In this document: one piece after another, positions 36,544 to 62,465 of the stretch
Layout: each line of letters opens with the position of its first letter
How positions within the stretch are numbered: position 1 is the stretch's first letter
IMG/VR virus record: IMGVR_UViG_3300042505_000752
Location: 64,967 to 128,966 of that record
Length of the DNA stretch: 64,000 nucleotides
Source of the DNA: a virus
Direction: 5' to 3' (one strand)
The notes under the pieces: model-generated
Database searches by the model: none
What the model was told of the DNA's origin: nothing
Seen by the model: the letters and a program-made list of their open reading frames with translations, nothing else
Made by a program: the position numbers and the translations under genes

Positions 36544-36855
36544 AGTTGTCCTTTTCCGTAGTAGTGGCTTACCAGATAAGTATAGCAGATATGTGTAACA
36601 ATTACAACATCTAAATAGATATTTATTAGATTTTTTTTGCGCCGTAACTTATAGGACAAGTATAGCAGATGAGTGTAACAATTACAACCTATTTATAGAT
36701 AAAGTTATCCACAGACTTATCCACAGGCAAAAAATAGGGGGTCATCCGCCACCGTACGAAAAAGAGACACACAGTCCCGTGCCCCAAATCGGGGAGCGGG
36801 GCTATCAACCTTATTGACAAATTCTGTCAATACTTGCAAGCATTAGCCCCGCAAC

Positions 36856-36869
36856 CGAACTAATGTTCG
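36856..36869. promoter_or_regulatory. LexA-type SOS box
   Basis: CGAAC-TAAT-GTTCG, 4 nt before the ATG at 36874. Confidence 0.65.
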
Positions 36870-36873
36870 TAGC

Positions 36874-37239
36874 ATGATCAACCAGAATAAGTGGACAACC
36901 CACATCACAGCACTCCGCTCATATGCGGAACGAACAGGAACTACACGAGTGCCTCGGACTCATGTAGAAAATACAGAGACAGGTGAAGTACGACTCGGCG
37001 CTTGGGTGTCGTATGTTCGTCACCGCCAGCGCAAGGGACACTTGTCCGATACACAAATTCAGGAACTTTCGTCGCTCCCAAATTGGCACTACGAACCACT
37101 GCCCGCAGGACGGACAGGCGACACTGCTCGTGACACCATGATTCAAGCGAGGGCGGAAGATGGCGCACGAGTTCGTGAACTATCACAAGAGTTTGGTCTT
37201 ACTCGCCAGCGGATTCATCAGATCATCTCATCTAAGTGA
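36874..37239 (+). CDS. helicase-associated (HA) domain + HTH protein
   Basis: W......L..Y....G...VP......LG.WV...R...R.G.L...I..L; C-terminal FGLTRQRIHQI. Confidence 0.8.
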   Translation: MINQNKWTTHITALRSYAERTGTTRVPRTHVENTETGEVRLGAWVSYVRHRQRKGHLSDTQIQELSSLPNWHYEPLPAGRTGDTARDTMIQARAEDGARVRELSQEFGLTRQRIHQIISSK

Positions 37240-37520
37240 ACAAGATGAACGAGTCGTATGCCGAGTGGCAGAGAGAGTTTAGGAAGTCACAAACGATTCC
37301 TAAGAATGAGAAAGCGAAACCAAAAGGCTTCGTGCTTTTTGTTGCCATGATCTTTTACTCACTGATCGTGACTGTTGTCTTTTTCTTTGTTGTCAGCATT
37401 GCCCTACGCATTGCAGGGTGGTCAGACTTCCTGTCTGCTCGTCAAGTGTTCGGACTTTGTTTTGGCATCTCATCACTAAGAGGACTAGACAGAGTTTTCT
37501 ACGGTAGTAATCCTTTTTAG
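37236..37520 (+). CDS. two-TM membrane protein
   Basis: Hydrophobic segments. Confidence 0.6.
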   Translation: MNKMNESYAEWQREFRKSQTIPKNEKAKPKGFVLFVAMIFYSLIVTVVFFFVVSIALRIAGWSDFLSARQVFGLCFGISSLRGLDRVFYGSNPF

Positions 37521-37527
37521 ATATAGC

Positions 37528-37564
37528 AAAGAGCGGTAGGTGATAAACACCTACCGCTCTTTTA
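37528..37564 (+). terminator. intrinsic terminator
   Basis: AAAGAGCGGTAGGTG-ATAAA-CACCTACCGCTCTTTTT. Confidence 0.85.
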
Positions 37565-37606
37565 TGAGGCAGAGAGGAAAGGACAAGTAACCCTCTGCTA
37601 AGAAAG

Positions 37607-38956
37607 TCAGTCGTCTAAGTTTCGTTCTTTCCAAAATGACGAGTTCTTGATTTCACCAACAGCGTTAGCCTTGAGTCGCTTACCTTGCTTGACTTGTTTC
37701 AATGCCTTGATAGCACCTACAACATCATTAACTTGGTGAATACTGTGCTTAATAACAAGGTTCGCACACTCGTCAGTCAGGTTGGCAAAGTTATTGTCGC
37801 CCTTGCCATCAGTAACATAACCATCGCAAACCCAAATGAATGGTTCGCCTTGCTTACGCTTGGCTTGTGCGAAACGAATAGCAGGACCATCAACACCGTT
37901 ACCGCCGTTGCCAGCAGGAACTTTCTCAACAACCTTGCCTCGTTCTGCCATTACCCAAACATTCGGGATTTCCTCAGAACCAGTTCGGTGAGAGTAACCA
38001 ATGATTACGCAACCGGGCGCTTCCTCAATGATCTCCCACAAGTTTTCTGTTTCCAAACGCATTGAACCTGATTGGTCAATAAGAACAACACCGCCTCGTC
38101 CCTTGGCACGACGATCAAAAATGCGTCGTTCAGGGTCTGTCAACATTCGTCCAATGCGACGAGGGTTGCGACCAATGTTAGTAGCAACTCTTTTTCGTCC
38201 AAGGTTTCCGTCAACAGCACGAGGCTTTGGAAGTTCTAATTCAATAAGTCTAGCGAACGCACCAGCGCCTGATTTTGCAATGTTCTTGACATCAGGGATT
38301 TCCTCGTTACCAAACTCATCAGGAGTTCCATCGTTACTCTCAGGCTTTAGCAAACTTTCAAGAAGCCGTGCAATGGGAACAGTCAACTTGTTGAAACCTT
38401 GCGGTAGACCATTCTCATCCGCCACCGTGGAAGCAACAGCAGGTGTTTTTTTCCATATCTTGGCGAGTGCTTTTTGCAATTCTCGTGCTTGCTTCTCAAA
38501 CTCAGGATTCGTTGTCTTGAGTCCTCGTAAGAAGTTTGCACCAGCCTTAGTGCCAGCGACAGCAGGAAGGAAACGAACAACTCCGTTCCAATCTCCGTTC
38601 TCGCCAATGATTTTTCCTGTCTGCGATTCAGAACCGTCTGCTAGTGCGTCAATAGGGAAGCCCTGTTTTGCAACCAACATATTCACACGAAACTCCTCTG
38701 CCATCATAAGCAGATCGGTTTCAATTCCTAGTGCCAGCATTGCTTCAGGATTCGTTGGCGAAACCTTTGCGTGCATGAGTTCGTGAGCACGAACGACACG
38801 AGAAGTGTCGTCAGCACCGTACGGTACTCGCATTTTTGCCGCTCGCATTTCTGTCCATGCGTCGCCTCGCACGGGGTTGCCCTCTTGGACTTCCCACGCA
38901 CGAGGCTCAATGTCACGCCTGTTGATAAATTCGGGCATTGCTTTCATGACTTGCAT
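37607..38956 (-). CDS. HExxH + vWA (CobT-like) protein; start uncertain
   Basis: RAHELMH; DQSGSM MIDAS; adjacent to an AAA ATPase. Confidence 0.8.
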   Translation of the reverse strand: MQVMKAMPEFINRRDIEPRAWEVQEGNPVRGDAWTEMRAAKMRVPYGADDTSRVVRAHELMHAKVSPTNPEAMLALGIETDLLMMAEEFRVNMLVAKQGFPIDALADGSESQTGKIIGENGDWNGVVRFLPAVAGTKAGANFLRGLKTTNPEFEKQARELQKALAKIWKKTPAVASTVADENGLPQGFNKLTVPIARLLESLLKPESNDGTPDEFGNEEIPDVKNIAKSGAGAFARLIELELPKPRAVDGNLGRKRVATNIGRNPRRIGRMLTDPERRIFDRRAKGRGGVVLIDQSGSMRLETENLWEIIEEAPGCVIIGYSHRTGSEEIPNVWVMAERGKVVEKVPAGNGGNGVDGPAIRFAQAKRKQGEPFIWVCDGYVTDGKGDNNFANLTDECANLVIKHSIHQVNDVVGAIKALKQVKQGKRLKANAVGEIKNSSFWKERNLDD

Positions 38957-38957
38957 A

Positions 38958-39677
38958 TCAAGAAACTCCGTTCACTAAGATTGCGTCTAATACGGACTGA
39001 TAGTGCTTTCCGAAAGTAAGGCGTGCCGCCTTCTCCACAGAAACCGTTTTGCGTAGAGTGTCAAACGCCATGAATGCTCGGATAGAGAAACGCCTATCAC
39101 GATCAGCGTCAGCCGAGGCGGCCGCCGCTCCTCGCAAGTCAGGCGAGAGCATTGTCAGAGCGTCAGGGTGGGGAGTGTTGATTCGCACAGCAACGGGAAA
39201 GCGGTCTTTGAGTGCTTGTGGCAACTCACGCATATCCTCAATGTTGGTGGTCATGAACACCGAGAAACCTTTTTTCGGCTTCAAGATTCGTCCTGTCTCG
39301 GGGTGTTCCCAAGAGGCAGATTCCTCACTGTCAAACATCGCAAGTAGTTGCGACATAACATCGCCTGACGCACGGTCAATTTCGTCAGCGACAACTCGTC
39401 CGCCGTTGATACCGTCGCCTTGCCACGCCTTGATAACAGTGCCATCTTGCCACTTCCAAGTACCATCGCCTGATGGCTTGAAGTGACCAGTAACATCGGC
39501 GCTTGTCATATCCTCGTTACAGATAAGACGGTGAGCACCTGCCGAAACATTGCCAAATGTAAGACCAGCGAAAGTCTTGCCCGTTCCTGGCGGTCCGAAC
39601 AGAATTAGTTTGTTGATTCCTGAGTCAAGAATGTCATTGACATCTTGCCAGCATTCGGGGAGATTAGTAGTAGTCAT
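38958..39677 (-). CDS. MoxR/CbbQ-type AAA+ ATPase
   Basis: GPPGTGKT, ADEIDRA, TTN, ALKDRF. Confidence 0.88.
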   Translation of the reverse strand: MTTTNLPECWQDVNDILDSGINKLILFGPPGTGKTFAGLTFGNVSAGAHRLICNEDMTSADVTGHFKPSGDGTWKWQDGTVIKAWQGDGINGGRVVADEIDRASGDVMSQLLAMFDSEESASWEHPETGRILKPKKGFSVFMTTNIEDMRELPQALKDRFPVAVRINTPHPDALTMLSPDLRGAAAASADADRDRRFSIRAFMAFDTLRKTVSVEKAARLTFGKHYQSVLDAILVNGVS

Positions 39678-39819
39678 AGTTTGTCCTTTGCTAGTAGCGG
39701 GTTTTCCCGTGTTTGATAAGTATACACCTTGTGTGTAGAAATTGCAACTTTATTTCAGAAATTATTTGACATTTTTTTAGAATGTAGTGGCAGGGAGATT
39801 TCCCCCTGCCACTCACTCA

Positions 39820-40218
39820 TCAGGCGACCTGAGAGAGTCCTACGACTGCCTCAGTCTCGTTGGCGATTTCCGTAACTCGCACTTGGTCGTACTTAGTGAC
39901 GGTAGTAATCGCCTCAGCGATATCGCTAGGGATAACGCCCAACTCAACGGCGGACTTGAATTTCTTACCGTCCACTTCAAGTTTGGTAACTTGCTTGAGA
40001 ACGATAGGCGAGACAAGTTCAGTCAATGCCTTCAAGTTGTACTTGGGTCGCTCACCATTAACGATGAGAACCTTTTGTCCGTCCACGACATTGAAGTTGA
40101 GTCCCTTTTCAGCGTAGGCAAGTTTCAAGTCTGCCTCTGCTTGGGCTTTTGCCTTTTCAGCATTTTCCAATGCTTGCTTGGCATTCAAGTAGTTGAGAGT
40201 GATTTGTGTGAGATTCAT
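39820..40218 (-). CDS. hypothetical cassette gene
   Basis: Cassette leader; downstream hairpin at 39787-39813. Confidence 0.7.
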   Translation of the reverse strand: MNLTQITLNYLNAKQALENAEKAKAQAEADLKLAYAEKGLNFNVVDGQKVLIVNGERPKYNLKALTELVSPIVLKQVTKLEVDGKKFKSAVELGVIPSDIAEAITTVTKYDQVRVTEIANETEAVVGLSQVA

Positions 40219-40296
40219 AATTTGTCCCTTCAGTAGTGGTGTGTATTCATTATACAGGTTGTGCGTAACAATTGCAACCTTATTTCTAAATTATTT

Positions 40297-40515
40297 TCAG
40301 AATTCGTATTCGCCATCGGATACCCATGCGATTTCGCCATCTTGGAAACCTTGGCGGTAAAGTTTGCCAAGAACGATGGTCAAGCCGTTAGATGTAGTAC
40401 CCAACTTGCCCGTGATGTACTTTTCTGCAAGAGCGTCAGTATCAAAAATTTTGTAATCAGTGGCAATATAATCGCCGTGCATTTCTCCATAAAGTACTGC
40501 TTGAAAGTTATTCAT
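40297..40515 (-). CDS. hypothetical cassette gene
   Basis: Cassette leader. Confidence 0.65.
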   Translation of the reverse strand: MNNFQAVLYGEMHGDYIATDYKIFDTDALAEKYITGKLGTTSNGLTIVLGKLYRQGFQDGEIAWVSDGEYEF

Positions 40516-40598
40516 ATTGTGTCCTCTCGGTAGTAATTGCTTGCGGAGATAAGTATATCAGGTGGGTGTATGGATTACAACCTTATTACTTAGATTTA

Positions 40599-40664
40599 TC
40601 AGATATTTTTCAGAACCATAGATAATGTTCCGAGTAGGTATAGACCAATGAATAAGAGTCCCAT
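40599..40664 (-). CDS. 21-aa hydrophobic micropeptide
   Basis: Hand translation MGLLFIGLYLLGTLSMVLKNI; full cassette promoter and AGAAGGA RBS. Confidence 0.55.
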   Translation of the reverse strand: MGLLFIGLYLLGTLSMVLKNI

Positions 40665-40847
40665 AGTAATCCTTCTGTAGTAGGTGAAATATAAGTATAC
40701 AGGTTGAGTGTAAGAATTACAACCTTATTTATGTTACAGAATGACTACAATAATTGTAACAGAAATGTTATATTAAAATGTTGTATTTGTTACACAGAAG
40801 TGCTATACTTATATTCGTAAGTTACTACTACCGAAAAGGACAAAACT

Positions 40848-41045
40848 ATGGAAGCGAAATGTTGCGCCGATAAGCCGATGTTGGAAGTTTATGGTTACGA
40901 GGGTTGTGCGGATTGTTACGATAAATGGTGCGAGGGTGAACTTATTGCCTATGAAGATTTACGCCGTGCAGAGTTCGCAAACTCTTGGGTGATTGGTGGC
41001 GGTTACGCCTCAGACGCTGATCTCGCTTACGAACAGTTTGCGTGA
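40848..41045 (+). CDS. small acidic Cys-rich cassette gene
   Basis: Canonical cassette at 40781-40847. Confidence 0.7.
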   Translation: MEAKCCADKPMLEVYGYEGCADCYDKWCEGELIAYEDLRRAEFANSWVIGGGYASDADLAYEQFA

Positions 41046-41240
41046 TGGCGAGTCCCACTGCTGAAAGGCGGTGGGACAACCACTTAGTCCCGCTTGGGCA
41101 GTCTCATCCGCCACCGTCATTCATTGGGAGCGCGCGTGCGGGGCTATCTCGGTATCCCCCACCCCTGAAGCCCCGTACCCCCCAAAAATTTCTGGGGGTT
41201 TTCCACAGGCTGGGGATAACCTGTGGATAACTTTGATCCG

Positions 41241-41417
41241 TCAGCAAGCCCCCTCGCAATACTCGCAAGTGGTCTCGTCAACTTCGTGACAGCCGTTCCA
41301 GCCTTCGTCAACTTTGTTGTTGTCGGCGCAATACTGTATGCGACACCAGTCAGAACAGAAAACAATTCTGTCAACGATATCGCCACTCTTATCTTCAATC
41401 AAAAGTAGGTGAGCCAT
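41241..41417 (-). CDS. 58-aa Cys-rich cassette gene, not in ORF track
   Basis: Hand translation MAHLLLIEDKSGDIVDRIVFCSDWC...CEYCEGAC; cassette leader. Confidence 0.7.
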   Translation of the reverse strand: MAHLLLIEDKSGDIVDRIVFCSDWCRIQYCADNNKVDEGWNGCHEVDETTCEYCEGAC

Positions 41418-41546
41418 TATTTTGTCCCTTCGGTAGTAGTGCCTTACCTTATCTATTATAGCAGGCGGGTGTAGAAATTACAACATCGAGATTAGATTTA
41501 TTTAGAACTTTAGGGGCGGACTTTCGCCCGCCCCCGACGCTGATAA

Positions 41547-41825
41547 TCAGCACTCGCAATCTTCGTGGAGTTCTTCGCACCAACCGCAGAAACGGCGAGT
41601 GTCTAGGTCGTCGTCCTCGTCGTCCTGAATGTCAAAGGACACCCAAGTCATAACGGTACGAAGCAGGTGATCGTAATCACCAGCAGTAGCCTGCTGAACG
41701 AACTCAGCGATTACTTCCCGAGACACGCCGTGAGTACGGAGTGCTTGGCTAACTCTAGCGATAATGCTAAACGCATTACCGTCCTGCTCAACGAGCAGAA
41801 TGGAAACTTCAGGATACTTAACCAT
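41547..41825 (-). CDS. conserved small phage protein (DGNAF...GDYDHLL family)
   Basis: Motif plus cassette leader. Confidence 0.7.
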   Translation of the reverse strand: MVKYPEVSILLVEQDGNAFSIIARVSQALRTHGVSREVIAEFVQQATAGDYDHLLRTVMTWVSFDIQDDEDDDLDTRRFCGWCEELHEDCEC

Positions 41826-41902
41826 AATTTGTCCCTTCGTTAGTAGTTTTTCCTTACCTGATAAGTATAACACATGGGTGTAACAACTACACCATTGTAG
41901 AG

Positions 41903-41918
41903 CGTGTCGTTTGTCACA
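41903..41918. promoter_or_regulatory. CRP-like palindromic box between divergent promoters
   Basis: CGTGT-CGTTTG-TCACA; equivalents at 43925, 45999, 46943, 48531, 51320, 52486, 63238. Confidence 0.6.
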
Positions 41919-41998
41919 TAAGATTTATTCGTAAAAGTGTGTAAATGCTACACGCACCTGCTATAATATATATATCACCTACTACGAAAGGACAAAAT

Positions 41999-42331
41999 AT
42001 GATTTGGAAGGCAAAAGTCTCCGATGTTATTGACCATCTCGTTTATTCGGGAGCAGACACTTACGAGTGGTATCACGAACTCACCGTGACGAAGGACGGA
42101 CAAATTGTCTGCACGATGGAAACGGGCGAGTACGACGATGAGTCTGAGCCGTTGACCAAGAGCGTTGCGTTCTCCCCGACTCACGCCCTGACAGTCGCTA
42201 ATGCGATTATCAAGGGACAGGAAGCGGGTTGGCGTACCGTTCAGTCAGCAGTCGCTAGTGACGACTTTGACTCCGATGCCGCAGACATCGTTCTCCAGCA
42301 CATTGTGCTGAGCGACTTGGTGTTCGGCTGA
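41999..42331 (+). CDS. hypothetical cassette gene
   Basis: Cassette leader; GAAA-loop hairpin downstream. Confidence 0.7.
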   Translation: MIWKAKVSDVIDHLVYSGADTYEWYHELTVTKDGQIVCTMETGEYDDESEPLTKSVAFSPTHALTVANAIIKGQEAGWRTVQSAVASDDFDSDAADIVLQHIVLSDLVFG

Positions 42332-42691
42332 GAGCGCAGGGCGGGGGAGGGAAACCTCCCCCAAGACCCTGTGGATAACCTTTATCCACAGCCTGTGGAT
42401 AAACCTGTGGATAACTTTCCCGATAGCCCCGTATATAAAGTGCGGGTGCGGGACTGTCACGATAAATAGTCGTGGAAATTCTTGAATTGAAAAAGCGGTG
42501 CGGGGCTAACAAACTAAATAGCAGGGGTCAAGCCCCTGCCACACTAGTCACTCGGTCCACGAGAACCCGCAGATCCAGCAGAATGTCTGTCATTTTGCCC
42601 GCTTCGGCAATGTTCACTCCCCGCAAATCACGGAGAGTGTCGTCAATGAGATTATAAATCTCCTCGGTTGGCGTGAGTAAATTTAACTCGC

Positions 42692-43084
42692 TCATACGCT
42701 TGCCCCTTCCTTGATCTTGGCTAGTTGTTCGGCACGAATTGCGTTTACTTCCTCGGCTGAGAATACCTTACCGAACACGCTCAACATGGTACGAATGTCG
42801 TCGTCCACGCCCGTAGTGTTGCCTTCCTCGTCGTACCCTGCGATAACAGCAGGTCCGACAAGTCGGTAGCCTTCGCCAGCCAAAGTGGAAGCGAACTCGT
42901 TTAAGGCGAAGTCAGAACGGAATAAACCTTCCTCGTTCAACCATAAGTCAAGACCGTCCACCAATTGAACGCTCTCAATGAGTCCCTGAACGAGACTCTG
43001 GAGAAACTCCAAAGACTTTTGACCTTCGGGCTTCTGAACAATGTACGGCGAACCGTCTAAATCGTTGATGTAAATGACTTGCAT
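42692..43084 (-). CDS. DUF3846-like protein
   Basis: LE.LQ.LV.G.IE.V.....DLWLNEEG......N..AS......LVG.AVI.G.D.EG.T.G. Confidence 0.75.
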   Translation of the reverse strand: MQVIYINDLDGSPYIVQKPEGQKSLEFLQSLVQGLIESVQLVDGLDLWLNEEGLFRSDFALNEFASTLAGEGYRLVGPAVIAGYDEEGNTTGVDDDIRTMLSVFGKVFSAEEVNAIRAEQLAKIKEGASV

Positions 43085-43162
43085 AATTAGTCCCTTTCGT
43101 AGTAGTGTTTATATATTATAGCCTTGTGGGGCAGGAAAGTCAAATCCTGCCCCACAATTATT

Positions 43163-43582
43163 TCATTTAATCCAAGCAGTATTATCTGCGAGGAGTTCGT
43201 GCGCTGACTCAATAGCGTCGCTCAGCGTGTGCTGAACCGAGTCAAACCAATCTTGACCCTCGGCGTATAAATCAAACCAAGAGTTATTTATCCATTCAAT
43301 GCGCCCAATTTCGGCAGACTCATAAATGTCGTTGTCGTTGTTGATCTCCCATTGTTCCCATTGGTCGCAGTAGCGAATAACCGAGTGCCCTTGTGCCCAA
43401 TCAAGAGGAGAGTAAGCAATATGCACTCGCATTTCGCCATCGGCATAAATACGGATAGTGCGCTCGCCATTGCTGACGCTCGCCACTAGGTCATGCGTGA
43501 AGTATGTATACCAAGCCGAGTCCTCACGCCCCATAGGACGCATATCAGGCTGATGCCAAGTGATGGTGATGGTAGTAGTCAT
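43163..43582 (-). CDS. acidic Trp-rich cassette gene
   Basis: Hairpin-type cassette leader. Confidence 0.7.
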   Translation of the reverse strand: MTTTITITWHQPDMRPMGREDSAWYTYFTHDLVASVSNGERTIRIYADGEMRVHIAYSPLDWAQGHSVIRYCDQWEQWEINNDNDIYESAEIGRIEWINNSWFDLYAEGQDWFDSVQHTLSDAIESAHELLADNTAWIK

Positions 43583-43667
43583 AATTAGCCCTTTCGTAGT
43601 AGTTGCTTATAAAGATAATTATACACAAAGGGTGCGTTAGAGTTTCCCCCAACGCACCCCTTGAGTA

Positions 43668-43856
43668 TCAGACTGCGACCTTGCGTGCCTTGCGTCGCGC
43701 GCGGACCTTGCGGATCTCTGCGCGAAGTGATGCGGTGAGTCCAGCCTTGATCCAAATGGCGGTTATCAAAGAAGCGTTGATCATAACCAGTAAGCCTCTG
43801 ATTACTTCCAAGGTGTAATCCGAGAGAGTGAAGTTGATAGTGTATTGAGCAATCAT
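43668..43856 (-). CDS. small single-TM protein
   Basis: Hydrophobic core and basic tail; cassette leader. Confidence 0.65.
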   Translation of the reverse strand: MIAQYTINFTLSDYTLEVIRGLLVMINASLITAIWIKAGLTASLRAEIRKVRARRKARKVAV

Positions 43857-44010
43857 TTTGTGCCTTTCGTAGTAGGTATGAGATAAGTATAGCGACCTTG
43901 TGTAATATTTACAACCTTCTAGTAAGTGTCATTTGTCACACTACTCAATGTTGTAATTTCTACACAGACTCGCTATAATATACTTGTACACAACTACTAA
44001 AGGAGAAATT

Positions 44011-44871: not shown

Positions 44872-44887
44872 TAGTAATCCTTTCGGG

Positions 44888-45115: not shown

Positions 45116-45158
45116 AGTAATCCTTTCGGTTGTAGTTGGTATGGGGTGAAGTTGGGGG

Positions 45159-54671: not shown

Positions 54672-54780
54672 AATCGCCCCATCCGCCGTATCCATTTGAT
54701 AAACTAGAGGGGCACAGAAAAGACTGCTACTTGCTATCGGCGTATGCGCCTGACCTTATCCACCGAACAACGGAGTAACA

Positions 54781-55338
54781 ATGAAAAAATCAACTGTAGC
54801 GAAGCATTATCTAATACCAATTTCTATCATCGCAAGTGCCATCATGTTCATCTCAAGTACATTTGGAAGTAATTCAAGTAACGCAACATCGGTCTCTATA
54901 ACCCCAACAGAAACCTCAACAACTACTAGCGTTTTGGTAACAGCGCCACCCACCTTAGCCCCGTCAACTACGACGACAACGCTTCTTCCTCCGAACTGGA
55001 CTCCACCGACATTGCCGTCTGATGTCCCATGCCAAGAGTGGACACGGACAGCACTTGATGCTGGCTGGCCATGGGAACTCTTGCCTGAACTACTCCGTGA
55101 AGTGTGGTCTGAGTCTCGTTGTCAGAATGTCATTGAGGGTCACCCACAATGGAATGGACATGACCGTGGACCTCTTCAAATCAACCAAGTTTGGCTTGAC
55201 GACATTGAGGCAAAGTATGGGCACTGGGAAGTGGTCAATGATCCACGCTATAACTTTGCGTGGGCATGGGAGATGTATCGCTGGTACGAGGACCATGGCT
55301 ACTGCGGTTTCAAGCCGTGGTCACGCCCGTGTAAGTGA
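54781..55338 (+). CDS. secreted lysozyme-like transglycosylase (SLT-like)
   Basis: Signal-like N-terminus, Thr linker, W.ESRC...DRGPLQIN. Confidence 0.75.
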   Translation: MKKSTVAKHYLIPISIIASAIMFISSTFGSNSSNATSVSITPTETSTTTSVLVTAPPTLAPSTTTTTLLPPNWTPPTLPSDVPCQEWTRTALDAGWPWELLPELLREVWSESRCQNVIEGHPQWNGHDRGPLQINQVWLDDIEAKYGHWEVVNDPRYNFAWAWEMYRWYEDHGYCGFKPWSRPCK

Positions 55339-55345
55339 GGAGAAA

Positions 55346-55858
55346 ATGAACATATTTAACAAATGGATCATCGGAGTCACCCTCTCCTTCGCAGTCATCG
55401 GCGTTTCCTTATGCGGGACTGCGGACAACAAAGCGAGTGCTGAAAAAATAGTTCCAGCAACAGCACCGATTGACCTTTCGGGAGTGAATTGGACTGAACT
55501 CGCTCGTTTGATGTACGGAAGATGCGGGGAATACCATGACCTCGCCATTGCAGTTGGCTGGAGTGAAGCGCAATGGAAGAAGTTGAGTTTCGTCATGTAC
55601 CGCGAGTCCCGCTGTAACACGATGGCGTTCAACAAAACTGATCCAAACGGCGGAAGTCGTGGACTTATCCAAATCAACGGTTTCTGGTGTAAACCAAGCA
55701 AGTACAACAAATCTGGTTGGTTACAGGCGCAGGGGGTACTCAACACTTGCGAGGATCTGTTCATTCCCGAAGTAAACCTTCGTGCGGGGCTAGCGATGTG
55801 GAACTACAGCCAACAGCGAAACAAGTGCGGCTGGCAGCCATGGGCGACTCGTTGCTAA
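55346..55858 (+). CDS. secreted lysozyme-like transglycosylase (SLT-like)
   Basis: Signal-like N-terminus, YRESRC...SRGLIQIN...NLRAG...GWQPW; GAGGAG RBS. Confidence 0.8.
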   Translation: MNIFNKWIIGVTLSFAVIGVSLCGTADNKASAEKIVPATAPIDLSGVNWTELARLMYGRCGEYHDLAIAVGWSEAQWKKLSFVMYRESRCNTMAFNKTDPNGGSRGLIQINGFWCKPSKYNKSGWLQAQGVLNTCEDLFIPEVNLRAGLAMWNYSQQRNKCGWQPWATRC

Positions 55859-55932
55859 AGTTTCACGGAAGAGTTGCTTTTTCGTAGCGAAGTGTGTATA
55901 ATGATTACAACTACTAACGAAGGGGTGCATTT

Positions 55933-56223
55933 ATGAGTAACTTAAAATACTTTTTAGTGGCGAGCGAGGACTACCCCACGCCCGCACTCATTCTAGAGGA
56001 CAACAACAACTGGGGCGAGGTCTATTGCAGTCGCCACGCCGTTGAGGACACACTGAACCAATTAATTGACGGTTGCTGGTTTGTGGAAGTACCACAAGAA
56101 CTGAGCGACTGTATCACTCACGGTTCGTGTCCTTCTTGTCACGACGAGTATGCAGATGACCTTCGGGAATCCTGCGAGCGTGACCAAGTTGCCCGCTACG
56201 AAGCATGGTTGGAGGCAAGATGA
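55933..56223 (+). CDS. Cys-rich acidic cassette gene
   Basis: Cassette leader. Confidence 0.7.
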   Translation: MSNLKYFLVASEDYPTPALILEDNNNWGEVYCSRHAVEDTLNQLIDGCWFVEVPQELSDCITHGSCPSCHDEYADDLRESCERDQVARYEAWLEAR

Positions 56224-56441
56224 CCACCGATTACATAGTTTCGCCTGACTACATGGGGCGACCCGACTGGTGCGGGTGTGGAGAGTTCCACGAGTCCGTT
56301 ATCTGCGCTAACTGCGAGGATATGGAGTGCCCATCACAGCGGGCGCGCGATATTCACTATCATGACCGCATTGGTCAGTATCTCTGCTCGGAATGTTTAT
56401 GCGGATATGCCGAGGGGCTATCAGCACGAGGACGAGAGTGA
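56220..56441 (+). CDS. Cys-rich Zn-finger protein
   Basis: ATGA overlap; multiple CxxC motifs. Confidence 0.6.
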   Translation: MTTDYIVSPDYMGRPDWCGCGEFHESVICANCEDMECPSQRARDIHYHDRIGQYLCSECLCGYAEGLSARGRE

Positions 56442-56619
56442 GAAAGGCGGGCGGTGGGTACGCTCACCGCCCGACCACCCATCGGGGCTATCGGCGTTTC
56501 TGATAAATCTAATGGAACACGAAAGTGCTGGTCAGAGGCTTTTTTGCGATATGACTTGCTTTAGATAAATCCATACGCTAGTATTTCATATAAATCCAAA
56601 CAGATACTAAGGAGAAATC

Positions 56620-57648
56620 ATGGCACATGAACTAGAAATGAAAGCAGACGGAACAGCGAAGTTCGCTTACTCGCTCAAGGGCGGTATCCCGTGGCATCGC
56701 CTCGGAGTCCCGCTTGAAGGTTTACAGACAGTGGACGCAATGCTCAAAGCATCGGAAGCCGACTACGAAGTAAAACTCACCAAAGTGGCGGCAGTTGATG
56801 ATGATGGCAACTTCATTCTTGATGGCAACGGAAAGCCAATCATTATTGAAGATACCCGTGCCACTATCCGAGACAACGGAGATGGAACGCTTGACGCACT
56901 TTCTTCAGTTGGAACTCGCTATGTGGTCAAACAGAACAGGGAAGTAGCAGAACGCGCGCTTGCCGTAGTCGGGGCTTCAGAGGGAGAGGCAGTCGTTGAT
57001 ACCGCTGGCGTTCTTCAGAACGGAAAGCGTTTCTTCATGACCCTTGACTTGGGAGCACTCATCATTGATCCGATGGGCGTGAATGACCGCATTGCTCGCT
57101 ACCTCGTTGTATCCACGGGACATGACGGAGTGTGGCCAGTTCGCTACGCAAATACCGACATTCGTGCTGTTTGCAACAACACTGTTCGCCTTGGACTCAA
57201 GGAAGCAGAACGAGTGTTCGTAGCACGACACACAAAGAACATGGACTCAGCGTTTGACGATGCGAAAGAAGTCTTGCGCATCAGCGTTGACTGGGCGAAG
57301 AACTTCAAGGTCATGGCAGAGGAGATGCTGTCTATCGCAGTCCCGAAAGATTCAGGCAAGGTGGACAAGGTTCTCAACCGAGTCTTCCCCATCAAGAAAG
57401 ACGAGACGGATCGCCAACGCACGAATCGTGAACGCACGAACATGATTATCCGTTCACTTTACGAATCGGACAAGAACGCTGGTGGTTTTGGACATAATGG
57501 CTGGAGCATGTATAACGCCATTGGCGAATACCTTGACCATCACCGAGACGCAGAGTTAGATGAGCGAGCATTTGCTTCACTTGACGACAACTCATGGGTG
57601 ACACGCATCAAGTTGGAAACCCAGCAGGCTGTTCTTTCACTAGTCTGA
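56620..57648 (+). CDS. DUF932-family phage/plasmid protein
   Basis: MAHELE...PWH.LG; Y...QN; GKRFF; RAVCNNT; W..YNA..EY.DH. Confidence 0.88.
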   Translation: MAHELEMKADGTAKFAYSLKGGIPWHRLGVPLEGLQTVDAMLKASEADYEVKLTKVAAVDDDGNFILDGNGKPIIIEDTRATIRDNGDGTLDALSSVGTRYVVKQNREVAERALAVVGASEGEAVVDTAGVLQNGKRFFMTLDLGALIIDPMGVNDRIARYLVVSTGHDGVWPVRYANTDIRAVCNNTVRLGLKEAERVFVARHTKNMDSAFDDAKEVLRISVDWAKNFKVMAEEMLSIAVPKDSGKVDKVLNRVFPIKKDETDRQRTNRERTNMIIRSLYESDKNAGGFGHNGWSMYNAIGEYLDHHRDAELDERAFASLDDNSWVTRIKLETQQAVLSLV

Positions 57649-57717
57649 CAAACATCAAAAATAGAGTCATAATGGGGTGGGACAAAATAGTCCCGCCCCA
57701 TTTTATTTGGAGAAAAA

Positions 57718-58083
57718 ATGAACTACGAAGGCATGGACCCTGACAAACTTCATAAAATAGTTCAATCCGCAATCAACCCACTTGAGGTTTTTCGGAGGGC
57801 TTTCTGCCAGCGAGTAGTTGAATCTGTAAACAACCAGTTCGGTAACGAAGGTTTGTACGACTTACTTCTTGGAATAGACGCAGTGGGAAACTTTGGTTCA
57901 GTAGTTGTTATCAACCGAGATGAAATAGATAACTACATGTTTACTAACTTCGGGACTTTTGACGAGTTTATGTACGACAAAATTGTTATGTCAGAAGAAT
58001 GGGCGGACTTCTTGGGTCATGTCATGGCGGAAGCGGGCGCAACCTTAGGCAAAATCATTGACGACGCAATGGATAACGACTAA
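57718..58083 (+). CDS. hypothetical protein
   Basis: GGAGA RBS. Confidence 0.65.
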   Translation: MNYEGMDPDKLHKIVQSAINPLEVFRRAFCQRVVESVNNQFGNEGLYDLLLGIDAVGNFGSVVVINRDEIDNYMFTNFGTFDEFMYDKIVMSEEWADFLGHVMAEAGATLGKIIDDAMDND

Positions 58084-58313
58084 CTCCAGCCGTTGATGGG
58101 GTGGAACTCAGCGTAAGCGGTGTCATCGGAGAACGCAGTAACTACTAATCCAAGTTCCGTAACGAGAAGGTCTGCGACTTGACCGAAATGGTCCCGCATC
58201 ATATCTAAGTCAACTTCTTCTGTGCCGTCATTTGCTAGATCAACGAGCAGATCACGAATGTAGTTGGAAATGAAAAGTTGAGCGGTGTGAGTTTCTGAAA
58301 TTTCTGAATCCAT
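58080..58313 (-). CDS. acidic hypothetical protein
   Basis: 77-aa ORF. Confidence 0.55.
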   Translation of the reverse strand: MDSEISETHTAQLFISNYIRDLLVDLANDGTEEVDLDMMRDHFGQVADLLVTELGLVVTAFSDDTAYAEFHPINGWS

Positions 58314-58385
58314 GTTGACAATCTAGCACGGTGCTGGTAACCTATTGAGCAACAACCCCATAAGGGGAACACGAGGAGAATACGA

Positions 58386-58844
58386 ATGTCAGCATCACCG
58401 ACAACACTTACAGGAAACCTTGTTTCAGATCCCGAACTTAAGTTCTTGGATAATGGAACAGCGAAATTATCAGGCTCTATTGCCGTTGGTCACTATTGGA
58501 CAGACGCATCGGGCGAAAAGCAAGAAAAGACTTCATTCATTGACTTCGTTGCATGGCGCTATCTTGCCGACGACGCAGCACGAGTGTTGGAAAAAGGCGT
58601 TCGTATCATTGTTACGGGTCGTCTTGAACAGCGTTCGTGGGAACAAGACGGGGCTAAGCGAAGCAAGGTTGAACTTATCGCTGACGACATCGCTGTCGCA
58701 GTGAAGTCAATTGAGTCGTTTGACCGTCGCCGTGCTGGTGAAAAGGGTGCTGTTGCGCCGAAGCCCGCAGCCGCTAAGCAGGCACAACGCACTGCGTACA
58801 AAGCACCGACACAATCCGTAATGGAAGATGCCGAGCCGTTCTGA
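58386..58844 (+). CDS. ssb: single-stranded DNA-binding protein
   Basis: GNLVSDPEL, T.F.D.VAWR.LA, KG.R.IVTGRL.QRSW, C-terminal EPF. Confidence 0.93.
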   Translation: MSASPTTLTGNLVSDPELKFLDNGTAKLSGSIAVGHYWTDASGEKQEKTSFIDFVAWRYLADDAARVLEKGVRIIVTGRLEQRSWEQDGAKRSKVELIADDIAVAVKSIESFDRRRAGEKGAVAPKPAAAKQAQRTAYKAPTQSVMEDAEPF

Positions 58845-58933
58845 GCGAATTCTCGTTCTTTATAGTGTGTCTACTAGGTACATACGCTGTAGTGAAATTG
58901 GTTGATGGTCGGGGCAAGAAATAGCCCCGACCA

Positions 58934-59137
58934 TTACCATTTCTGATGTATGAATTCCCACACTTCAGGGGATACAAAGTCCTCGTAGTACGGATCAAGG
59001 ATCGTACCGATGAGTTCCGAAGCAATGTCGGGTCTGACCATCGCAAGGAAGTTTGACACCGCCTGTCCTAGTCGTTGAGTTTCCCTATTGCGTTCAAAGT
59101 AATCGGTTGAGTTACTAAGGAACTCTATGTAGTTCAC
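58934..59137 (-). CDS. hypothetical protein
   Basis: GTGA overlap; QRLGQA..N motif. Confidence 0.6.
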   Translation of the reverse strand: MNYIEFLSNSTDYFERNRETQRLGQAVSNFLAMVRPDIASELIGTILDPYYEDFVSPEVWEFIHQKW

Positions 59138-59397
59138 TCTGTCCACTCCCAAGTTCCATCTTGATGAAGCGTAGCATTTGACGGAGCGTCGCATTTAGTA
59201 ATGTCCACGAACATCTGCCCGTCATTCTCCCAAGTGAAGTTGGTGTTTAGGACTATTCGGCACGGGTTGTCGTTGTCGGGGTCTACAATGTCTGCTAGGT
59301 GTCCTATACCAAGCATAGAGAGTAGCCCTACTCCACCCCAAAAGGTGAAGCGAACTATTGAACGGATAAAGTAGTAGTGTGGTGTTTTAGTAGTCAT
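59134..59397 (-). CDS. single-TM protein
   Basis: Hydrophobic segment near the N-terminus. Confidence 0.55.
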   Translation of the reverse strand: MTTKTPHYYFIRSIVRFTFWGGVGLLSMLGIGHLADIVDPDNDNPCRIVLNTNFTWENDGQMFVDITKCDAPSNATLHQDGTWEWTE

Positions 59398-59425
59398 AGT
59401 TACATTATACAAAACCTATCTATGA

Positions 59426-59881
59426 ATGTCAAGGATTGTTATGTCGGATAAGATAAATAAAAAATCAGCGCCACGACAGAAAATACTAGGGATAGAACGG
59501 GAAGGCGCATGGGGCAGGGTTGAGTATCTCCACCTATTGGCGTGCGGGCATACCGAGCGACGGAAGCGCCCAGCGAAAACTGGAATCATCTCCTGCTCAT
59601 GGTGCGTAGTTGCCGAGAAGCAAACGGAAGTTCTACAAAGTTTTGCCACGAAGCGACCACAAAGCCCCGCTGAAGACGATGTTTTTGACCGACTGAGTTC
59701 GTTGATGGCGGTGTCGGAGAGGGAAGTTTCCAAACTAAAAGCGGAAATTGCATCTAAGTTCAATGTTCCCGTGGACTATGTTGATGTCGTTGTGGAAGAC
59801 GATGACGGGACTCTTTCTGTTTCGTACGCAATCATTTTCTTATCGGCGCAAGATATCAAGACTATTTTCCTACACTCTTAA
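59426..59881 (+). CDS. hypothetical protein (HLL.CGH...CSWC); start uncertain
   Basis: Long ORF. Confidence 0.6.
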   Translation: MSRIVMSDKINKKSAPRQKILGIEREGAWGRVEYLHLLACGHTERRKRPAKTGIISCSWCVVAEKQTEVLQSFATKRPQSPAEDDVFDRLSSLMAVSEREVSKLKAEIASKFNVPVDYVDVVVEDDDGTLSVSYAIIFLSAQDIKTIFLHS

Positions 59882-59960
59882 GGAAAACACTTGACATTCA
59901 CTAACTTGCCCGTTAGACTATGGCTTAAGTTACTACTAACAACAACAGAAGGATAAACCC

Positions 59961-60383
59961 ATGAAGCGACTTATTCCAATCATCATCACCACCCTCGCAC
60001 TTACTGCGTGTGGAACAAAAACCGTCTATGTCACGAGCACCGAAGTGCCGAACAGTCCCGAAACAACTGAGAAAGTTGTCAAGACAACCGACGCACCGAT
60101 TGCGACATCAGCACCTGAACCTGTCTACACCACAGAAGATGAGTTCATCTACGACATTGAGAGTAACTACGACGGAACTATCTACTTGGAAAACCAAGAC
60201 ATGATTGACGCTGGTTATTCAACCTGCGATGGTCTACGCAGTGGTATGAGCGGTTACGATGTACTTGATGTAATCCTTTCATCATCTGATGGAATCGCGA
60301 GTGTTGAAGAACTACTCGGGACTGTCGTCGCTGCTGCTGTCGTAAACTTCTGCCCTGAACAGCAGTACAAATTCAACGACTGA
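59961..60383 (+). CDS. lipoprotein, DUF732-like
   Basis: Lipobox LTAC; DEF......G...C..L..G....V......AV..FCP. Confidence 0.75.
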   Translation: MKRLIPIIITTLALTACGTKTVYVTSTEVPNSPETTEKVVKTTDAPIATSAPEPVYTTEDEFIYDIESNYDGTIYLENQDMIDAGYSTCDGLRSGMSGYDVLDVILSSSDGIASVEELLGTVVAAAVVNFCPEQQYKFND

Positions 60384-60619
60384 TGAAGCGGATTGTTGAA
60401 TTTTTTCGCAACTCTGATGTCGTACTGATCGTACGGGCATTGTTGTTCACTGTAGTTGCTGCGGTTGTCATAGGAATCGTTGTACTAAGCCTTCAGATTG
60501 AGCGTTTTATTAAGTTTCTTAGTAGGTTTTATACGCTTTTCGTATGGACATTTTTGATTGTCGGCTCTTGGGCTGTAGTTATAGGCTTTACTCTGCTAGT
60601 TATCTCTATTTGGAAGTGA
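60383..60619 (+). CDS. two-TM membrane protein
   Basis: Hydrophobic; coupled start. Confidence 0.6.
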   Translation: MKRIVEFFRNSDVVLIVRALLFTVVAAVVIGIVVLSLQIERFIKFLSRFYTLFVWTFLIVGSWAVVIGFTLLVISIWK

Positions 60620-60625
60620 ACAATT

Positions 60626-61063
60626 ATGAAACTGATTACCAAACTCGCACTACTAGTCCCGTTACTCACTGCGTGTAGCGCAACCATGAGCAACGAAACA
60701 ACGACTCTTCAGCCGCTACCAACAACGATAAACATTCCCGTTATTGACACAATTCCAAGTACTGATGTGCAATTCACTTCAGAACAAACTGCGTTCGTAG
60801 ATGATGTGTACTTCTTCTATGGAGGAGTCCCGTCAATCGCAGATGAAGAACTCGTAGAAATTGGCGAGTTGTGGTGTCAGTTGATGACCGATGGCATGAG
60901 TGCCAAAGATGTCATCGGGCGGATCAACGAAGGATCAAGCGATAATGCCGATGCTCTTCTTCATTTTTCTATCGTAAATGCAGGGATTGAGAACCTATGC
61001 CCCTCGCAGTGGGATAAGGCGGAGTATATTGCTCTCAATACTCCTTACTGGGCAACTCCGTAG
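60626..61063 (+). CDS. lipoprotein, DUF732-like
   Basis: Lipobox LTAC; AFV...G...C..M..G...LCP. Confidence 0.75.
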   Translation: MKLITKLALLVPLLTACSATMSNETTTLQPLPTTINIPVIDTIPSTDVQFTSEQTAFVDDVYFFYGGVPSIADEELVEIGELWCQLMTDGMSAKDVIGRINEGSSDNADALLHFSIVNAGIENLCPSQWDKAEYIALNTPYWATP

Positions 61064-61484
61064 TTGTACGGGGCTATCGGAAAGTGTGGGAAACTTTGTG
61101 ATGGGAAAAAAAATTAGAATAGTCTTAGTCAGCCTTCTTACTATTTTTCTTTCGTATGTTCTAGCGGCGACACTTTTTCTCATCTTCGCGCTGAGTCTCA
61201 TGAACCCTACGCCTCGTGTACGGGAAGTATTCCTACAGCCCCGTACTACGGGTCGTCGGCGTGGGTCGCTTTCCGACTTCACTTCATAGGTTTGTCGGTG
61301 AGTCTGATGTACGGACTTGCCATCGCTTTCGCATAGGCGCGCGAGTGGCTTAGTCCGTGATGATGGCGGTGGAGAACATACTCTGTAGAGAACGCTCTGC
61401 TCCACCTATTCGCTTTCATTGCTTTGAGTGTTAGTAGTTGGTAACTCATTCGTTGCCCTCCGTTCTAGGGGAACAGTACAGCGG

Positions 61485-61748
61485 TCACCACCCGCTGTAC
61501 TGTTCGTATTCTTCCCGTGTTGGCACTTCGTTCTTCATGGCTTGGTAAGACTCAACCGAACTCATATAGTCGGCGGTCTCTTGCCATTCTGCTTCAGACT
61601 TGCCTTCGTTGGTCTCTAGCCAAAAGCCGTAGTCCTCTTGGTAGTAGTCAGAGTCTCTGTAAGCCTCTTCTGCTTCGTCGTAAGCGTCTTGCGCTTCGTG
61701 CCTATCTTGATATGGCTTCTGTAACCAAGTGTCGTAGTCAACGCCCAT
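61485..61748 (-). CDS. highly acidic Tyr/Trp-rich cassette gene
   Basis: Cassette leader; hairpin at about 61476-61504. Confidence 0.7.
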   Translation of the reverse strand: MGVDYDTWLQKPYQDRHEAQDAYDEAEEAYRDSDYYQEDYGFWLETNEGKSEAEWQETADYMSSVESYQAMKNEVPTREEYEQYSGW

Positions 61749-61923
61749 TGTCTTGCTCCTTTGTAGTAGTTGCTTCCTTATGAATACAAGTATAGCGAGA
61801 ATGTGTAAGGTTGTCAACCTTTTGTTGGAAAATATTTATAAATATATTTTTGGGAAATAGTTGACATTCTCTCACCTATCCCCTATAATGTATTCATACA
61901 CAAAATACTAGAAAGGTATTGCT

Positions 61924-62112
61924 ATGAAAATCTTGGAAATCCCCGAAGGCGAAACTATTGAAATTGTCTCCCCGAACATTATTGAGTTTTGGCGAGACGG
62001 GCAACTCATGGGCGATACCTACAAGGGTCTAGCCGACACGCTCCGCCTGACGGGTATCAAGGGACTCACCATAGTGATGACCGACAGACTCCCCAACGAG
62101 AGTGAGCGGTGA
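61924..62112 (+). CDS. hypothetical cassette gene
   Basis: TTGACA-N17-TATAAT; GAAAGG RBS. Confidence 0.7.
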   Translation: MKILEIPEGETIEIVSPNIIEFWRDGQLMGDTYKGLADTLRLTGIKGLTIVMTDRLPNESER

Positions 62113-62280
62113 AAGCCGACCACGCTTATCGGGCGGGGCTAGTGAAGTAATTGGGGCTTGCGACCTGTTTAGTCGTGAGTTAAACGAAGTGAGTACCTAG
62201 TGCTTGATGCGAGCCGAGCGGGAAGCCCATGCTACCTGCGATGAAGCCAGCCATTGCGATAGGGAACGGCTGAACCCCGA

Positions 62281-62308
62281 ACGACCTGAGTATGTCGTAA
62301 AAGTGCTC
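62281..62308 (+). ncRNA. putative H-type pseudoknot at the 3' end of a structured intergenic RNA
   Basis: ACGAC/GTCGT stem plus GAGTA/TGCTC stem. Confidence 0.4.
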
Positions 62309-62465
62309 TTCTTCGCTATCTACCGATAGCCCCGTACTCGCCACATACTCGGATTTTTTTATGACGGACTTTTACATACTCGGATTTTTTCAGTACGGGC
62401 TTTTATGCGAAAAAAAAGTTATCCACAGGCTGTTGATAAACCTGTGGATAACTCTCATTGCTAGA

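Follow-up and report, generated by a model that had tools for sequence, protein, structure and literature searches.

The window analysed here is a 64,000-nucleotide stretch from the 129-kb genome of an uncultured lake-water phage, and it is present in 22 lake-water runs. The host is probably an actinobacterium, given the Pfam families encoded (DUF732, HA domain and DUF6011), the nearest phages and the lake-water habitat. The early-gene region of the window contains a block of some 35 small gene cassettes, most of them leftward (33329–52415, minus strand), and each made up of a promoter (TTGTAA-N17-TATACT), a conserved leader and a single short gene. Gene calls based on the recurring leader (ACTACTAC..AAAGGA..ATG) left ten gene-free joints between cassettes, confirming the claim of a first-pass annotation that these gaps lack credible genes; together they measure ~3.4 kb. 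No Rfam families or tRNAs were found in the joints, which contain ordinary promoters and terminator-like hairpins in addition to the arrays of short sites described below.

The most abundant of these sites is the DnaA-box, recognised as a clustered 9-mer matching TTATCCACA or TT(A/T)TNCACA. Perfect TTATCCACA boxes occur 25 times in the window (~0.5 expected), and 53 are found when up to one mismatch is allowed (16.2 ± 4.2 in shuffles). Genome-wide there are 31 perfect boxes, all except one within the early region, and around strong boxes the exact match to the DnaA consensus extends into the flanks (GTTATCCACAGG). Clusters occupy six of the ten gaps, at 36.7, 41.2, 42.4, 50.4–51.0 (21 + 3 boxes), 51.75 and 62.4 kb, and none was found in the gaps at 44.3, 46.1, 48.7 and 52.5 kb; thus the site types that had been proposed to combine repeatedly in the islands are real, but the DnaA component is restricted to a subset. 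A seventh cluster of about ten same-strand boxes lies just past the window end (genome 318–470), adjoining a modest AT tract (genome 270–317), which brings the sum to ~48 boxes in seven clusters. The main array (50433–50967) is housed in island G (50094–51004) and begins with a block of 21 boxes in mixed orientation (50433–50771), separated mostly by 2–3 bp plus three 22-bp spacers; its spacers include trio-like TAG/TTG sequences that are ambiguous. Following this block are a 14-mer (50794), three CGGGRCT words and a further three boxes (50935–50967).

LexA-type boxes (CGAAC-N4-GTTC(G)) were also confirmed in two islands. Nine copies are present, eight in tandem within island I (array 52511–52676; joint 52416–52763) and one in island A, with six of the eight tandem boxes fitting GAAC-A-NN-T-GTTC. 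By their sequence they are of the Cheo (Gram-positive/actinobacterial) class rather than the E. coli class, a motif that the probable actinobacterial host may use. The array begins 30 bp upstream of the -35 of a leftward promoter (52443–52481) and ends ~75 bp upstream of the -10 (TAGACT, 52752) of an SNF2 helicase gene that is apparently leaderless. The overlap with a promoter expected of classical SOS operators was not seen for the eight-box array. Instead, this array, the DnaA pair at 36.7 kb and the out-of-window cluster all lie ~20–40 bp upstream of leftward -35 elements.

LexA serves as a switch in the tectivirus GIL01, in CTXphi and, through tum, in coliphage 186, temperate phages in which one or two operators overlap a promoter. 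The present phage resembles them in carrying host-type LexA sites within its control DNA and no repressor of its own, but differs in having eight tandem boxes, none of them on a promoter, and no sign of lysogeny. The plasmid-like latent state that had been offered as an alternative found no support: neither an integrase nor an S24/CI-like repressor nor a LexA-type domain was found in the phage. Nor did the search for parAB point to partition, as no ParA was present among the scanned proteins, and the two ParB_N proteins lie on either side of a PAPS-reductase-like gene, an arrangement more suggestive of a DNA-modification trio than of a partition locus.

Two further words accompany the boxes. 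CGGGGCTA, with 26 copies against 0.75 expected, is part of a wider word, CGGGRCT, which is strongly enriched between 31 and 64 kb (59 versus 6.9 expected) and depleted between 0 and 31 kb (1 versus 5.5 expected). The second is a 14-mer, TC[AT]TCCGCCACCGT, present in seven copies that are all on the plus strand. Both had been described as island components, which holds only in part: CGGGRCT also runs through genes, and two of the seven 14-mers are in coding DNA, leaving five in islands. Across the replication-gene module, 30 CGGGRCT copies are dispersed in both orientations (52738–62334), one about every 320 bp and within genes, and those in coding DNA occupy all three reading frames. Cluster A mycobacteriophages have comparable elements, the stoperators, which are asymmetric 13–14-bp sites present in many copies at gene joints in one orientation relative to transcription. 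The 14-mer resembles these in its confinement to one strand, but it has only seven copies and an unrelated sequence, and no phage repressor was found.

Individual islands differ in composition. Island A, a divergent joint (36544–36873), carries two leftward promoters (36579–36607 and 36659–36687), two perfect DnaA-boxes (36705–36725), a 14-mer (36742–36757), CGGGRCT words at 36773, 36797 and 36845, and the single, perfect LexA-type box (36856–36869). At the convergent joint of island B (41046–41240) there are words at 41086, 41139 and 41169, a 14-mer (41104–41119), three DnaA-boxes (41199–41230) and a hairpin, while the convergent island C (42332–42527) has four perfect DnaA-boxes spaced by 3 bp (42370–42414), words at 42425, 42449 and 42501, and hairpins at 42344–42363 and 42518–42542, the latter extending 15 bp beyond the joint. 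Island D (44245–44424), also convergent, has words at 44264 and 44342 and a 14-mer (44307–44322) and no DnaA-box. Similarly devoid of a DnaA cluster is island E (45914–46228), with a leftward promoter (45949–45977) and words at 46088, 46128 and 46161. Island F (48463–48861) contains promoters, a 14-mer (48669–48684), words at 48700, 48761 and 48822 and no DnaA-box; the 80-bp stretch with the highest AT content in the genome (GC 14%) starts within it at 48588. The convergent island H (51695–51873) holds a head-to-head DnaA pair (51735–51756), an inverted pair of CGGGGCTA (51777 and 51806) and a hairpin. Finally, at the convergent joint of island J (62113–62465), words at 62134 and 62328 precede two T-rich 31-bp direct repeats (62343–62405), of which a relative has three copies, and three DnaA-boxes (62419–62451).

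DnaA clusters are over-represented at convergent gene ends (four of eight, versus two of 46 other joints; p = 0.003). Their positions are nonetheless mixed, including convergent ends, promoter-upstream sites and one tandem joint, and no single local role therefore fits all clusters.

The arrays are not an assembly artefact. Four further lake-water runs yielded single contigs that cross the whole DnaA array, and the LexA-type array is matched by short contigs with zero differences. Conservation of the islands, which the first-pass annotation had named as a check on its proposal, was borne out. The relative G001 (92–97% identical) retains every cluster, and in island J it preserves the boxes and one word intact although the flanks have diverged. 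Distant relatives (helicase 59–66% identical) keep LexA-type arrays adjoining DnaA arrays, the two being 0–41 bp apart in L199, L194, L244, L283 and L004. Relatives L002 and L006 have no arrays in the DNA examined, and thus array location is not fixed. The pairing also occurs in apparently unrelated viral contigs; across relatives, these contigs and T5 the gap is mostly 0–41 bp, with ~170 bp at one locus. Around 118 viral LexA-type arrays, DnaA-boxes have a density of 0.95 per kb versus 0.083 per kb elsewhere, and 30 permuted control words gave 0–0.06 per kb.

The layout of the boxes, judged on sequence, matches that of chromosomal DnaA arrays. At least 120 bacterial genomes, most of them from Actinomycetota or Clostridia, contain the module TTATCCACA-N3-TGTGGATAA-N3-TGTGGATAA, and in three of five genomes checked it lies immediately upstream of dnaA; arrays that flank dnaA in actinobacteria have 17–18 perfect boxes, which is comparable in scale to the phage array. 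Chromosomal clusters (oriC, dnaA-upstream, datA and the B. subtilis DBCs) thus share with the phage arrays the 9-mer, the 2–3-bp spacing, mixed orientation and scale. In contrast to them, the phage arrays are at seven places, are paired with LexA-type boxes, and have neither a dnaA or dnaN gene nor a clear unwinding element alongside.

The phage encodes a replication set consisting of a Toprim+AAA_25 primase-helicase, an SSB, a Rad52-type annealase and an exonuclease. Because no DnaA (including its domain IV), LexA, CI-like repressor, integrase, ParA or recognisable DNA polymerase was found in it, the readers of the DnaA and LexA-type sites are likely to be host proteins. We tentatively suggest that the islands are cis-acting docking sites for host DnaA and LexA, a reading that may be correct although we would not call it probable. 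Host DnaA, received by boxes laid out like a chromosomal origin or dnaA-upstream region, would together with LexA coat defined joints of the early gene-cassette region and build large nucleoprotein blocks. Blocks at gene ends could act as roadblocks or insulators, and those beside promoters and the replication module as gates, so that transcription of the early genes, and perhaps also the onset of phage DNA synthesis, would be coupled to the replication and SOS state of the host. Draining of DnaA and LexA during phage genome multiplication would then be a by-product, itself maybe useful to the phage.

The first-pass annotation had placed this draining at the centre, proposing that the arrays are a sponge or decoy which, once the genome is amplified, depletes the free pools of DnaA and LexA, thereby stopping host initiation and switching on SOS. 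On this reading the stop would also free the host polymerase on which the phage seems to depend. Such titration is physically plausible once copy number is high, because the 31 perfect boxes per phage genome approximate those of a whole chromosome (28 and 35 in two actinobacterial chromosomes of 3.0–3.6 Mb). No DNA polymerase of family A, B or C was detected in the 129 kb, several clusters sit at convergent ends without a nearby cis target, and DnaA-box clusters are known to hold DnaA and restrain initiation, as at E. coli datA and the DBCs of the B. subtilis chromosome (PMC3245932). The elements of the proposal that stood are that the sites are host-type, non-coding, conserved and have no phage reader. 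As the main purpose, however, a sponge is not supported, because it needs neither the adjacency of LexA-type and DnaA sites nor their confinement to the early region, and both are observed; moreover, there is a single genome copy at entry, and a multicopy plasmid carrying a DnaA-box cluster in B. subtilis bound DnaA but failed to complement, leaving over-initiation uncorrected (PMC3245932). We consider it unlikely. With the two site types side by side, we favour over a sponge alone a putative cis-acting docking element, which could be a gate, a roadblock or possibly an origin, and note that sink and local function are not mutually exclusive.

An origin in the strict sense, at which host DnaA opens the DNA, the phage primase-helicase or a host helicase loads and LexA gates firing, is similarly improbable. 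The sites that could serve are the main array, the cluster of about ten boxes outside the window, and island J. In favour of this, the array of boxes is comparable in scale to oriC and lies 2–5 kb from the replication module in this family (G000, L199 and L004), the ten same-strand boxes are beside an AT-rich tract, T-rich direct repeats adjoin the boxes of island J, iteron-like repeats adjoin the composite in L201, and no phage replication initiator was recognised. Against this, the clusters are seven and dispersed, the 25 most AT-rich 80-bp stretches all lie further than 400 bp from any DnaA cluster, a replication set of the kind encoded here usually works without DnaA, and for T5 it has been argued that the boxes are not an origin (Davison 2020, bioRxiv 10.1101/866236).

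T5 is among the closest known parallels. Its first-step-transfer repeat regions and injection stop signal, with their DnaA-boxes, have been described (Davison 2020) and are annotated in NC_005859. The present analysis verified the pairing in that record, placing the LexA box CTGTATAAATATACAG at 6213, 10 bp after a DnaA-box, with a mirrored copy at 9411 inside iss. Both phages are large lytic siphoviruses (~120–130 kb) in which untranslated DNA is interspersed with small early genes under strong promoters, and the arrangement of the T5 region, consensus DnaA-boxes paired 3 bp apart with a host-type LexA box alongside, is found here too. They differ in that T5 has 7–8 DnaA-boxes and this phage ~48 in seven clusters, in the up to eight tandem LexA-type boxes of actinobacterial type, and in that no IRC/IRD arms with a 52-bp spacer were seen here. 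The shared layout, together with the stronger palindrome avoidance of some early-region segments, is consistent with an entry checkpoint, in which arrays would pause or anchor incoming DNA via membrane-associated DnaA while early genes act first. We regard this as very unlikely: there are seven clusters rather than one or two, palindrome avoidance has no sharp edge, the assemblies are circularised, with overlaps of 193 bp and 11.3 kb in the records, and do not show the physical ends, neither phage metallophosphatase resembles T5 A1 by BLASTP, and the underlying T5 model is itself hypothetical.

Equally doubtful is that the sites are read by phage proteins sharing host specificities, or are functionless selfish repeats spread between cassettes: cassettes and repeats have been gained and lost between G000 and G001, and CGGGRCT and the 14-mer are lineage-specific words without a known host reader, but phage DnaA domain IV and LexA-type domains were not found, the same host consensuses recur in phages of GC 26–66% (with the E. 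coli LexA motif in T5), and boxes are intact where flanks diverge.

Looking beyond this family, phages of at least three host phyla might independently have assembled non-coding DNA that captures DnaA and LexA, as a general protein-free device for takeover or sensing. We put this forward as a speculation with a low chance of being right; the examples are T5 (Proteobacteria), this phage family (Actinobacteria) and a GC-26% contig with Firmicutes-type boxes. No description of DnaA-box or LexA-box arrays in actinobacterial phages was found in the literature searched. If the speculation is true, paired arrays would read or drain the two regulators of the host that report on replication status, such as by stopping host initiation and derepressing the SOS regulon to the benefit of a polymerase-less phage. 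The DnaA-boxes in the first-entering DNA of T5, known since 1987, still lack an explanation, and this phage family has the T5 theme at a much larger scale, with its ~48 boxes and tandem LexA-type arrays. Because the pairing recurs in apparently unrelated viral contigs, each with its own host LexA motif, the T5 oddity would become a general feature of large lytic phages, one that is testable and would show non-coding phage DNA using the master regulators of the host.

The window makes up the second half of a viral record 128,966 bp long, which begins and ends with the same 193 bases. The whole genome (G000) encodes an HK97-type capsid protein, terminase and tail proteins, together with a replication and repair set: an SNF2 helicase, SSB, a Toprim+AAA_25 primase-helicase, ribonucleotide reductase, thymidylate synthase, methyltransferases, a Rad52-type annealase, a Cas4-like nuclease and RuvC. 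Despite the primase-helicase, SSB, reductase, annealase, nuclease and RuvC, searches of the 129 kb of G000 detected no DNA polymerase of family A, B or C, and no DnaB, DnaA, LexA-type domain, S24 repressor or integrase either. A trio of genes encoding ParB_N, PAPS-reductase-like and ParB_N proteins (genome 49976-52523, - strand; L044:9976-12523) looks like a DNA-modification module rather than a partition system. Twelve kb of the phage DNA gave no megablast match among cultured-phage records. The nearest relatives of the capsid protein (50% identity) and helicase (32-35%) belong to phages of actinobacteria, several early proteins contain the Pfam families DUF732, HA and DUF6011, which occur mainly in actinobacteria and their phages, and the stretch is present in 22 lake-water metagenome runs; the probable host is therefore a low-GC freshwater actinobacterium. 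Two RNA runs cover a small share of the stretch only.

From ~33 to 52.4 kb the window carries a run of ~35 small gene cassettes, leftward for the most part, each composed of a promoter (TTGTAA-N17-TATACT), a conserved leader (ACTACTAC...AAAGGA...ATG) and one short gene, while the replication genes at 52.76-62.1 kb are mostly rightward. Genes were called from the leader; a caller trained on long, mostly late genes did poorly on the small early ones. The first-pass annotation had listed ten gaps lacking credible genes, and leader-based calling leaves the same ten gene-free joints, or islands (~3.4 kb in total), in which Rfam and tRNA scans found nothing. Ordinary promoters and hairpins are also present in the islands. 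The SNF2 helicase gene is apparently leaderless, with a -10-like TAGACT ending 6 bases before the ATG (window 52752-52766). A palindrome-like motif (exactly or nearly GGATAAAT(N)TATCC) lies near islands in G000 (genome ~555-580), L194, L244, L283 and L002; the exact pattern was counted twice in each of two viral contigs, L194 and L286.

The window contains 25 copies of the perfect DnaA-box TTATCCACA (~0.5 expected) and 53 within one mismatch (16.2 +/- 4.2 expected); the early region holds 30 of the genome's 31 perfect copies. The first-pass annotation had noted DnaA-boxes repeatedly in the gaps. Clusters were found at 36.7 kb (two boxes), 41.2 kb (three), 42.4 kb (four), 50.43-50.97 kb (the main array, 21+3), 51.75 kb (two) and 62.4 kb (three), but none at 44.3, 46.1, 48.7 or 52.5 kb. 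Just beyond the window end lies another cluster of ~10 boxes, all on one strand (genome 318-470). Convergent gene ends beside hairpins are the site of 4/6 in-window clusters, and clusters occupy 4/8 convergent joints versus 2/46 other joints (p = 0.003); given this location, these four cannot be promoter inputs. For the 36.7-kb pair, the out-of-window cluster and the LexA-type array, the start lies upstream of a leftward promoter, ~20-40 bp from its -35, and the layout of a relative (L004) is similar. The most AT-rich DNA (48588, GC 14%) is 1.8 kb away from any DnaA-box, and no strongly AT-rich stretch adjoining a DnaA cluster was found. Three spacers inside the main array (window 50545-50566, 50660-50681 and 50716-50737) resemble, on the - strand, a compressed promoter -10 and leader start (TGTATACT-ACAACTACT).

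LexA boxes had also been reported in two gaps, and these proved to be of the CGAAC-N4-GTTC type: a tandem array of eight at 52511-52676, with one more box at 36856. Gram-positive and actinobacterial hosts use this LexA motif, which is not that of E. coli. The eight-box array overlaps no promoter, and in L002, L004 and L006 it is absent from this position upstream of the helicase. Elsewhere, a run of at least three consecutive LexA-type boxes occurs in at least 119 viral contigs (L173-L290), most of which lack nearby DnaA-boxes. Across the whole genome palindromes are avoided (observed/expected 0.2-0.9). ATGCAT is missing over 43 kb (window 25652 to genome 5265) and TTTAAA over 32 kb (window 35301 to genome 3666), both stretches spanning the early region; CGCG is missing between 32.5 and 41.1 kb, and TGCA between 48.5 and 53.6 kb. 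These site-free stretches are word-specific and share no sharp edge at any array.

The islands contain a further word, CGGGRCT, whose commonest form CGGGGCTA is present in 26 copies (0.75 expected). CGGGRCT was found 59 times in 31-64 kb versus 6.9 expected, and once in the late half (0-31 kb) versus 5.5 expected, with enrichment also in L004, L006, L199 and L263. In 36-52 kb nearly all copies lie in islands, often forming inverted pairs spaced by 17-70 nt, and the word occurs in 6/6 DnaA-bearing gaps versus 8/19 others (p = 0.017); in the replication module (52738-62334) it recurs every ~320 bp in both orientations. Because copies within genes occupy all three reading frames and spell different amino acids, CGGGRCT is a DNA-level signal. 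We rejected CGGGGCTA as a promoter element, general cassette terminator or fixed-spacing operator pair: it occurs in both orientations and at irregular distances from its partner (17-109 nt), is missing from the majority of cassette ends in 36-52 kb and is present in coding DNA. One copy falls within the promoter spacer of the SNF2 helicase gene. The oriented 14-mer described earlier, TC[AT]TCCGCCACCGT, was recovered in seven copies, every time on the + strand; it was rejected as a promoter -35, with a usable -10 at one copy only.

Contigs from four other lake samples each cover 50000-51791 or more with 16-32 substitutions, and single contigs thus span the main DnaA array; the arrays are not assembly artefacts, a concern raised in the first-pass annotation. 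Conservation of the islands was borne out in a close relative, G001 (90-97% identity across most of the region), which retains all seven clusters despite cassette gain and loss. Two slippage-type indels are the only difference in the main array, and in the island at 62113-62465 the left flank has been replaced, leaving the DnaA triple, T-rich repeats and CGGGRCT word intact. The G001 record has an 11.3-kb terminal overlap (contig 1-11341 and 133702-145042, 99.6% identity), giving a unit length of ~133.7 kb; sitting in late genes, the overlap is uninformative about the ends of the early region. In more distant relatives sharing the helicase/DUF932/SSB module (L199/L191, helicase identity 66%; L004, 59%) or related through other genes (L194/L286, L244/L252, L283), the LexA-type array lies 0-41 bp from the DnaA array; four cassettes separate the two in G000, a distance of 1.5 kb. 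A spacer beside a box in L199 is identical to one in the G000 main array. No arrays were found in the few kb compared of L002, L006 and L007.

DnaA-boxes occur at 0.95 per kb in the +/-300-bp flanks of viral LexA-type arrays, compared with 0.083 per kb in the remainder of these loci and 0-0.06 per kb for permuted control words (n=30). At least two DnaA-boxes lie near a LexA-type array in 14/118 loci, partly from the family of G000; L201/L261/L270, L218, L263, L269 and L040/L021 have no protein likeness to G000 in the DNA compared. The pairing is a general one. One contig of GC 26% combines nine CGAACAAATGTTC-type boxes with a DnaA triple. The apparently unrelated L201 (GC 42%; ~10640-10800, also L261 and L270) has three LexA-type and four to five DnaA-boxes, then ~80-90-bp direct repeats resembling iterons. 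In phage T5 (NC_005859), DnaA-boxes at 6121-6202 are followed 10 bp on by a perfect E. coli LexA box, CTGTATAAATATACAG (6213-6228), with a mirror copy (9411-9426) inside the annotated injection stop signal; both adjoin published DnaA-boxes in first-step-transfer DNA. Across 25 T5-like phages, eight DnaA-boxes in pairs 3 bp apart have been described, a replication role argued against and a DnaA-mediated injection stop proposed (Davison, bioRxiv 10.1101/866236).

A triple module (one forward and two reversed boxes, 3 bp apart) was found in 34 viral contigs (GC 26-66%) and in at least 120 bacterial genomes. The latter are mostly from Rubrobacteraceae, other Actinomycetota and Clostridia, and in 3/5 genomes checked the module lies just upstream of dnaA. 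The total of perfect boxes is 28 in one actinobacterial chromosome and 35 in another, and 17-18-box arrays beside dnaA account for most of them. The main phage array is therefore built like a host origin region, and a single phage genome matches an entire actinobacterial chromosome in its number of perfect boxes. The phage has no DnaA-like or LexA-like protein, making host DnaA and LexA the likely readers of the boxes.

Because DnaA and LexA-type sites are adjacent, the strongest discriminating fact, we tentatively favour, at less than even confidence, paired arrays serving as docking arrays with local effects. The sponge put forward in the first-pass annotation, in which the arrays titrate DnaA and LexA, is plausible but unlikely: it agrees with the number of sites and the missing polymerase, but the only published multicopy test in a Gram-positive bacterium gave a negative result (PMC3245932), and adjacency and restriction to early DNA are unneeded by a sink while being needed by a cis-acting nucleoprotein element. 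It is likewise doubtful that any array is an oriC-type origin of phage replication, since the clusters are dispersed, lack a clear unwinding element and coexist with the phage's own primase-helicase and recombination genes, even though such an origin would fit how the main array is built, how near it lies to replication genes and the presence of repeats next to some arrays. A T5-like entry checkpoint, whose assessment would depend on the physical genome ends of G000, seems improbable; BLASTP of the two metallophosphatases found no likeness to T5 A1. The proposed plasmid-like latent state gained no support from the search for parAB, integrase and repressor genes, with no integrase or S24 repressor detected and the ParB_N trio apparently of modification type. 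Under the docking interpretation that we prefer, occupied arrays would form roadblocks at convergent gene ends and may gate promoters or the replication module.
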